Virus record (IMG/VR): IMGVR_UViG_3300028591_000144
Direction: 5' to 3' (one strand)
Source of the DNA: a virus
Length of the DNA stretch: 33,480 bases
Shown here: positions 8,548-8,569 of the stretch, piece by piece
Layout: each line of letters opens with the position of its first letter
Numbering within the stretch: position 1 is the stretch's first letter
The notes under the pieces: model-generated
What the model was told of the DNA's origin: nothing
What the model saw: only the letters and a program-made list of their open reading frames with translations
Database searches by the model: none
Made by a program: the position numbers and the translations under genes

Positions 8548-8569
8548 AAAAAAAAAAAAAAAAAAAAAA
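8548..8569 (+). repeat. A22 homopolymer in 5' UTR
   Basis: 22 consecutive A between module-A promoter and leader hairpin. Paralogous leaders carry mixed sequence here. Confidence 0.8.

Follow-up and report, generated by a model that had tools for sequence, protein, structure and literature searches.

A run of 22 consecutive adenines (A22) at positions 8548-8569 of a 33,480-nt viral sequence (IMG/VR record IMGVR_UViG_3300028591_000144; this whole stretch of DNA is called the window below) is probably a hypermutable microsatellite, driven by slippage and tolerated in the 5' leader of an early two-gene unit. We give this reading a probability of roughly 0.6.

Position of the A22 tract

Reading of the sequence and a homopolymer census placed the A22 run on the plus strand, its length being the consensus of assembled DNA. 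The run is bordered by ...TTGTAATTGTCCTCAGC (...GATATAAGTTGTAATTGTCCTCAGC) on its 5' side and by TGAAAGTCCTGCGGTGAGGACAGC... (TGAAAGTCCTGCGGTGAGGACAGCAGGCAGAAAGAGGTTGCCCTATG) on its 3' side, and it does not arise by chance, as none of 100 dinucleotide-preserving shuffles of the sequence contained a run of this length. A sequence-only reading of the window had reported the run at these coordinates as the first of two copies and the census agrees, the only other comparable run being an A23 at 11884-11906, with at most 10 residues in all remaining A runs of the window.

A mechanical list of open reading frames contains two frames that cross A22, one at 8451-8621 on the plus strand and one at 8470-8907 on the minus strand. 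Translation of the tract in such poly-Lys or poly-Phe frames was ruled out, since the observed lengths do not come in steps of three: variants of 22, 23, 24 and 25 nt occur in close relatives and would shift the frame of both ORFs spanning the tract, which is therefore considered non-coding. Its 3' end lies 30 nt upstream of the SD sequence and 44 nt upstream of the start codon of the first gene of the unit. The features of this unit are the following.

8494-8530, plus strand: module-A early promoter (putative), with A8 at 8494-8501, TTGCAA at 8504-8509, an A/T spacer and TGATATAAG as extended -10 (TG at 8522-8523, TATAAG at 8525-8530)
8536-8539, plus strand: start of transcription as expected from promoter geometry, about 7 nt 3' of the -10
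8538-8545, plus strand: 5' arm of the leader stem, TGTCCTCA, pairing with 8584-8591 at a mean pair probability of 0.96 (RNAfold)
8548-8569, plus strand: A22 tract, predicted unpaired loop, an expanded and purified A-box AAGAAAC+An
8575-8579, plus strand: proximal GTCCT, a second copy of the core of the 5' arm read from the sequence, able to pair with AGGAC at 8586-8590
8584-8591, plus strand: 3' arm of the leader stem, TGAGGACA (RNAfold and aligned leaders)
8592-8617, plus strand: second hairpin of the predicted fold, with the SD sequence AAAGAGG (8600-8606) in its loop and the start codon at 8614
8614-8949, plus strand: gene 1 of the unit, an ORF for a 111-aa orphan protein with 81-98% identity in relatives
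9017-9388, plus strand: gene 2 of the unit, a 123-aa orphan, with a 28-nt intercistronic box (8956-8983) on its 5' side and a terminator-like hairpin plus T8 run (about 9387-9424) on its 3' side

Module-A promoter and predicted leader structure

Ten copies of the module-A promoter are present in the window and it is their consensus that points to a promoter function; a simple promoter scan missed the element because its -35/-10 spacing is 15. With transcription starting where the promoter geometry suggests, the A tract would extend from about +10 to +34 and begin some 10-12 nt into the predicted RNA. The earlier assignment of A22 to a 5' UTR that follows a repeated promoter is upheld by this arrangement, in which the promoter function and the start are both deduced. 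Directly upstream of module-A promoters, the segments 8432-8487 and 9537-9590 each carry a TATAAT-like TTCCTATAATTAAAAT and, about 20 nt further on, AAAGCCCCTATTTACTGGGCTTTTGG, which comprises a small hairpin and a short T run. This element could give rise to a very short transcript or could serve as a second terminator.

The 8-bp leader stem that encloses the tract in the predicted fold is nearly invariant among orthologues, with 97.5% of the cells paired in 10 aligned leaders. A single two-sided change, from U-A to C-G in L006, was detected and the observed score is reached by 47 of 500 shuffles; the covariation would be consistent with the stem, but it is weak. The sequence-only reading had placed A22 between the promoter and a leader hairpin, and only the first half of that description stands. 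The hairpin in question is the short one formed by GTCCT (8575-8579) and AGGAC (8586-8590), which is disfavoured at equilibrium in the predicted folds when compared to the distal stem, and A22 lies inside the loop of the stabler stem 8538-8545/8584-8591 and not merely 5' of a hairpin. A pseudoknot made of TGTCCTCA/TGAGGACA and CCTGC/GCAGG was ruled out: its 3' arms adjoin each other, and a gap of 0 nt cannot span an 8-bp stem, so that the two stems are alternatives.

On the minus strand, the tract reads as a T22 that follows the hairpin GTCCTCACCGCAGGAC, an arrangement that might act as an intrinsic terminator against antisense transcription into the promoter. A terminator scan does flag minus-strand sites at 8590-8575 and, in the paralogue, near 9692-9678. 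However, the stem is weak (5 pairs, of which 3 are G-C), the residues TTTCA intervene between stem and T22, all plausible genes are encoded on the plus strand, and the T8-10 that corresponds to the tract in relatives would do equally well. We consider a role on the minus strand extremely improbable.

An A-rich box in module-A leaders

According to the sequence-only reading, A22 replaces the mixed sequence usual for this part of the leader, and the paralogous unit at 9640-9716 with its CAAACAATAAAAAAAAATTTAAAA was given for comparison. That unit was quoted correctly, but the notion of a replacement had to be abandoned, as paralogues and orthologues have an A-rich box at the same spot. This A-box consists of AAGAAAC followed by A7-10, and its consensus in the window is (A/G)AGAAAC+A7-8. 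It is found at the same position in most of the 10 module-A leaders and in their orthologues. In the window leaders it follows the 5' stem arm and stands at the start of the enclosed loop. In six of the ten window leaders, the MFE fold is predicted to enclose the A-box by a 5'-proximal stem, and the stems differ in sequence; the stem pairs of paralogous leaders are TGTCCTCAGC/GCTGTAGGACA, CTCAGC/GCTGAG, CAACAGG/CCTGTTG and GCAGAG/CTCTGC. The closest paralogue (9609) has matching arms, yet an alternative hairpin is its MFE fold. In paralogous module-A leaders, runs of A4-A9 are kept across strains. Judged from these alignments, A22 is the same box in an expanded state that has lost its G and its C.

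Length variation among related contigs

Relatives were collected by a protein search with the 111-aa product, which yielded three clusters, and the cluster members together with those of the 123-aa neighbour led to 20 loci. Out of these, 16 distinct contigs carry the 8548 leader, and all of them stem from independent metagenome assemblies. Short alleles combine AAGAAAC with A8 (L009), A9 (L001-L005) or A10 (L012, L013). Long alleles read AAAAAAC+A15 (L015), AAGAAAC+A16 (L008), AAGAAAC+A17 (L016) or AAGAAAC+A18 (L007), and in these four the run is internal to the contig, the contig names being of the k141 type for L015 and L016 and of the NODE_ type for L007. Three more contigs start inside the run and have A14 (L014), AG+A19 (L010) or A25 (L011, to be read as at least 25), lengths that are unreliable because they come from contig ends. 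In L008, L010 and L011 the adjoining 380 nt are identical and the tracts are unlike. At the other extreme, L001-L004 belong to four separate assemblies with ENA ERZ accessions and each of them has A9; between L001 and L003 the identity is 100% over 6.66 kb.

The stability of the short alleles fits a length-dependent instability, and the A run seems to behave like a microsatellite that becomes unstable beyond about 10 units. The instability that had been predicted for so long a homopolymer was borne out by this comparison of related genomes. As in contingency loci, a polymorphic tract is accompanied by conserved flanks (A8 to at least A25 in 16 contigs), and the repeat is long enough for frequent slippage (A22, with other A runs of at most 10 save A23). 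For a frequent and reversible change of length inside a single population, the three contigs that break within the tract are an indirect hint at most. The two A8 runs of the promoter, at 8494-8501 and 8508-8515, have an identical length in all relatives, as expected because promoters are constrained in their spacing.

A collapse of k-mers or another one-off artefact was ruled out as the source of the long run: runs of 15-18 lie inside contigs, their lengths differ, and the contig names (k141, NODE_) indicate different assemblers and large k. Since the long run is contig-internal in k141-style as well as in NODE_-style contigs, it is not the product of a single assembler. The A22 tract thus appears to be a real hypermutable microsatellite.

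Homopolymers vary at other places too. T runs that follow terminator-like G+C-rich hairpins measure T9-T10 in the window and T15-T20 in relatives, far above what a terminator needs.

Window 6500-6509: terminator T run, T10 as compared to T16-T18 in relatives
Window 10530-10538: terminator T run, T9 as compared to T15 and T20 in relatives
Relatives: long T runs at 8229-8246 and 4651-4667 (L001), 499-514 (L002), 6260-6276 (L007), 2222-2240 (L009), 2203-2217 (L012) and 2099-2118 (L018)

Near the beginning of the window, at 19-54, a T13 is followed by a G20, and this G-rich run is hypervariable as well. Two contigs end in or beside it, which suggests either a homopolymer that breaks assemblies or a landmark of the genome. 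In relatives, the G-rich run takes the following forms.

L016, 1-22: G22 at the contig end
L001, 1088-1107: G10-T-G9
L007, 23-50: G9...G11

The closest genome and the second poly(A) tract

The closest relative, L016 (ENA ERZ27256846), aligns to positions 35-19389 of the window with 99.96% identity over 19,355 nt. A global alignment of the two contains 8 differences. Each lies in an A run or next to one, and the two poly(A) tracts account for 6 of them.

4257: window A10, L016 A9
Tract 1 (two differences): window A22, L016 AAGAAAC+A17, so that the window has the 24 nt of L016 minus G and C
Tract 2 (four differences): window gaagagg+A23, L016 gatgagg+AAGAAAAC+A14
14688: window A (in an A8 run), L016 G

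The window is the one that deviates at seven of these eight sites, in each case towards a purer or longer A state; for 14688, a comparison with L007 and L008 shows L016 to be the outlier. If these differences are real, the mutation rate of the tracts exceeds that of the remaining genome by orders of magnitude, and if they are not real, they represent consensus noise at low-complexity sequence.

The second tract belongs to a leader of its own.

11838-11866, plus strand: promoter for the A23 leader (TTGACT-17-TATAAT, 11 of 12 matches)
11884-11906, plus strand: A23, the second tract, immediately before the SD sequence AAGGAG (11908-11913) of a 52-aa gene (11920-12078)

In relatives, tract 2 is represented by GAGAAAAC+A6, by A8 after GAGAAAAC or GAGAAAAT, or, in L016, by AAGAAAAC+A14. 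A paralogue of the second leader near 15092 (window 15050-15110) has only GAAAGAAC+A6. This paralogue has the promoter-proximal TATAATGGGCTTGCCCGATGAGG and a homologous small gene in common with the A23 leader. Among further relatives, obtained from a search with the 52-aa family, only short-run leaders were found for tract 2 and none with a long run. The A23 tract is the same kind of expanded A-box as A22 and behaves like it.

Due to the near identity with L016, the exact pure A22 and A23 of the window might be regarded as an artefact of consensus or base calling, with a true state like that of L016 (AAGAAAC+A17 and AAGAAAAC+A14, respectively). The lone G and C would then have been dropped or misread amid long stretches rich in A. 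Such an artefact would account for the confinement of the only 8 differences in 19.4 kb to A runs, for the purer or longer A state by which the window is mostly (7 of 8 sites) the outlier, and for the fact that A22 equals the 24-nt tract of L016 minus exactly G and C; moreover, three assemblies break inside the tract, which must be hard to sequence or to assemble. However, partly purified forms occur elsewhere, namely AAAAAAC+A15 at an internal position of L015 and AG+A19 (L010) or at least 25 pure A's (L011) at contig ends, and their presence in independent contigs argues that purification happens in nature. Furthermore, the change in tract 2 is composed of substitutions, one insertion and a T-to-A exchange 5 nt outside the run and is not a simple dropout, and at 14688 the window agrees with L007 and L008, unlike L016. 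An artefact of this kind is doubtful in our opinion and, even if it were true, the long variable tract underneath would remain.

Downstream genes and genomic context

For the 111-aa product of gene 1, AlphaFold2 gave a confident model with a pLDDT of 88.6, in which two long helices form a predicted helical hairpin. This product had no match in Pfam or PHROG and no significant fold match in BFVD. Beyond the relatives with 81-98% identity, a search among 1.8 billion representatives revealed no homologues other than two marginal matches, both of them partial and to proteins of far greater length, and a protein-based search of IMG/VR found no loci related to the 111-aa protein. No Pfam or PHROG match was obtained for the 123-aa product of gene 2 either.

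P0020, a protein recorded for a 97-kb JGI/IMG contig, has exactly the sequence of the 111-aa product. The records of two relatives are labelled bovine metagenome, and in our reading the STEW19, WILK20 and LIJU20 sets come from rumen studies. We infer that the DNA belongs to an uncultured phage of the cattle rumen with a large genome (at least 97 kb) and that the window covers an early, host-takeover-like region. Its small ORFs form an array on one strand, in which promoter, leader and terminator modules recur many times. Megablast and blastn searches against INPHARED gave no DNA match of the region to annotated phages, no exact-pattern match for the intercistronic box, the promoter or the leader was encountered in IMG/VR, JGI metagenome contigs or GTDB genomes, and no Rfam family was detected in the window at gathering thresholds. 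Several ORFs match PHROG families of unknown function, one ORF matches a GNAT acetyltransferase, and one ORF of the window gives weak tblastn matches to diverse phages.

A number of further repeated elements were observed in the window. The 28-nt box AGGTAGACGGAACGCCTTAAAGACTCCG occurs 12 times (at 1610, 2941, 4847, 6131, 6370, 7336, 7734, 7998, 8956, 10090, 10385 and 11239). In the copies that were checked (8956, 10090, 11239) it lies just 3' of a stop codon, and an SD-like AGGAG follows most copies; the box may be an element for RNA processing or coupling. A G-run box, AACCGCACGTGCTGGGTAGGGCTGGGCAGCAAAAGCCGAG, of about 40-60 nt per copy is present at 2042, 3145, 5166, 6547, 8324, 9431, 10539 and 11276, and the copies examined (8324, 9431, 10539) are located directly 3' of a terminator hairpin and 5' of an A-rich region and a promoter. 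Between 12990 and 33280 there is a second promoter class with about 14 copies, characterized by TTGACA/TTGCAA and a TGnTATAAT-type extended -10; its leader is short and A-rich, with a strong AAGGAG. The promoter modules of the first 12 kb differ from those in the rest of the window. One tRNA-Ser gene (anticodon CGA) lies at 26135-26215 among small early ORFs. Several small genes have diverged paralogues, in tandem or dispersed, with 71-80% DNA identity (4613-4837/5898-6122, 17401-17685/28365-28649 and 18860-19060/20107-20307), and the gene array seems to be enlarged by the duplication of modules that each comprise a gene and its promoter.

Predicted consequences of tract length

If slippage is tolerated, as we propose, A22 would have originated from the conserved A-box (AAGAAAC+A7-9) after the 5' arm of the 5'-proximal stem. 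In one allelic lineage, the A run would have crossed the slippage threshold of about 10 and would then have grown and shrunk by replication slippage. The G and C interruptions would have disappeared as is expected when strands misalign transiently at the edges of a run, an established mechanism that is applied here by inference. During transcription, the 22-nt rA:dT stretch would exceed the RNA:DNA hybrid, so that slippage of RNA polymerase would generate leaders of mixed A length. Bacterial RNA polymerase is known to slip on A/T runs and has a hybrid of 8-10 bp (PMC6260861). Since a 22-nt run exceeds this hybrid, RNA polymerase should slip on it, and the sequence-only reading, which had proposed such slippage, agrees with A22 being far above the run length at which the bacterial enzyme slips (PMC6260861). 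Any effect on expression would be at most quantitative and not of an on/off type.

The leader was folded with 0-40 A's in the tract. The stem probability was 0.95-0.97 and the SD sequence was unpaired with a probability of 0.96 throughout, with an MFE shift of about 2 kcal/mol; these are equilibrium folds that leave out co-transcriptional kinetics and protein binding, so 'no effect' has the status of a prediction. Expansion would be tolerated because the tract sits in the unpaired loop of TGTCCTCA/TGAGGACA, where promoter spacing, reading frame, stem and RBS exposure are unaffected. The start of transcription, the slippage mechanisms and the near-neutral effect are all presumed in this account.

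The sequence-only reading had also suggested a contingency or phase-variable on/off switch. Such a switch is not supported, because the tract is non-coding and located 3' of the -10, outside the promoter spacer and any ORF, and because the predicted fold and SD exposure are flat for 0-40 A's. We class A22 as a hypervariable SSR and not as a demonstrated contingency switch, since its length changes without predicted effect on an element that determines expression. A quantitative tuner of expression is possible.

Tuning would acquire an adaptive sense if A22 were a contingency locus or expression rheostat, the length of which is under fluctuating selection and adjusts the dose of the early two-gene unit. 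The distal (8538-8545) and the proximal (8575-8579) GTCCT arms would then compete kinetically for one AGGAC and alter the protection of the mRNA 5' end; otherwise, slippage or escape of RNA polymerase or the loading of a factor might be altered. The presence of two GTCCT copies and one AGGAC is in agreement with this idea, as are the hypervariability of the tract among near-clonal genomes and the parallel expansion of a second leader to nearly the same length (A23 in the window and A14 in L016, as compared to A6-8 elsewhere). Also, interruptions were lost faster than flanks diverged (2/7 positions versus 6/380, relative to L008), and there are precedents in the leader repeats of hmw1A (PMC12721329) and tlpB/RepG (PMC8295292) and in phage contingency loci (PMC12633550). 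On the other hand, the equilibrium fold and SD exposure are predicted to be independent of length, the tract resides in neither promoter spacer nor ORF, and the downstream proteins are orphans. Terminator T runs, for which extra length is presumably harmless, grow just as much and, because they expand as much as the A tract, mutation pressure alone suffices. We regard an adaptive rheostat as unlikely.

It is quite unlikely, too, that both poly(A) tracts are a novel type of phage contingency locus, 5'-UTR homopolymer dials that act on the dosage of early host-takeover genes and are heritable and rapidly mutable. Length and RNA polymerase slippage would then set how frequently the protective stem forms relative to the proximal hairpin, or would set the loading of ribosomes or of an RNA-binding factor. 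If true, a population would always hold variants of early-gene output as a bet-hedging against variable hosts; the function of the downstream genes provides no argument for or against bet-hedging because both products are orphans.

Finally, A22 might be a selected translation or standby element, an unstructured A-rich stretch that recruits 30S subunits (via ribosomal protein S1 in hosts that use it) or Hfq and thereby increases translation of the early genes, with selection favouring longer and purer runs. A/U-rich leaders enhance translation and Hfq binds poly(A). A-rich boxes are conserved at the same leader position in two promoter classes and tract 2 abuts its SD sequence (A23-T-AAGGAG), as would be expected for such an element. 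In contrast, tract 1 ends 30 nt before the SD sequence and 44 nt before the AUG and is enclosed by a predicted stem, and most relatives and paralogues function with A6-A9. In addition, strong SD sequences and extended -10 promoters suggest a Firmicutes-like host, in which S1 probably contributes little. Selection for a standby function is decidedly improbable.

Comparison with known systems

The 5' poly(A) leaders of poxviruses are non-templated and formed by slippage at the initiator TAAAT. They share with A22 a poly(A) near the 5' end of a viral mRNA, whereas A22 is templated, begins about 10-12 nt into the RNA and lies inside a predicted stem-loop. When compared to 5'-terminal stabilising stem-loops of the ompA type, which begin within a few nt of the mRNA 5' end, the leader has a stem with a predicted probability of 0.96, an analogous stem is predicted in 6 of the 10 leaders, and the 5' end of the mRNA is placed only from the position of the -10.

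A 2025 preprint by Gomez, Barrick and Waters (PMC12633550) was the first to report homopolymer contingency loci in phages, with T2 and T4 among them. These loci are mostly runs of at least 6 nt inside ORFs that cause reversible frameshifts with a shown phenotype, and few are intergenic (PMC12633550). The A22 locus is similar in being a phage homopolymer with a presumably slippage-driven change of length and with diversity in the population. It differs from these loci (PMC12633550) in that the run of the rumen phage comprises 15-25 nt, is placed in the loop of a 5' UTR and has no consequence for a reading frame.

Repeats in bacterial leaders are a second point of reference. In Helicobacter pylori, a G-repeat in the tlpB leader is targeted by the sRNA RepG and its length provides gradual control (PMC8295292). 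A variable homopolymer in an mRNA leader is common to both cases, but tlpB is a bacterial gene and requires a complementary sRNA for a G repeat, and the repeat of the rumen phage is made of A. In Haemophilus influenzae, the heptamer SSR in the hmw1A 5' UTR constitutes one arm of a long hairpin that is cleaved by RNase III (PMC12721329). Here, the likeness consists in an SSR that lies in a structured 5' UTR and varies naturally in repeat number; in contrast to hmw1A, the repeat of the rumen phage is an unpaired loop and is predicted to be without effect on the stem.

As in transcriptional slippage at A/T runs (Wagner et al., 1990; PMC6260861), the A22 run is longer than the hybrid (22 nt versus 8-10 bp), in a region whose transcription is deduced from the promoter position. 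Known cases of programmed slippage restore or change a reading frame, whereas the run of the rumen phage is non-coding, ends 44 nt 5' of the start codon and is crossed by no conserved ORF, so that only the length of the leader would vary.

Significance

Natural metagenome data contain an unusually long A run (15-25 nt) in the leader of an early gene, and two poly(A) runs are almost the sole differences between near-clonal phage genomes. As a practical warning, such sites break assemblies and make up nearly all apparent differences between strains. If tract length affects expression, it would offer a non-coding route to heterogeneity within phage populations. If it has no effect, the tract would be a clear example of a runaway microsatellite that is tolerated in the leader loops and terminator tails of a compact phage genome.
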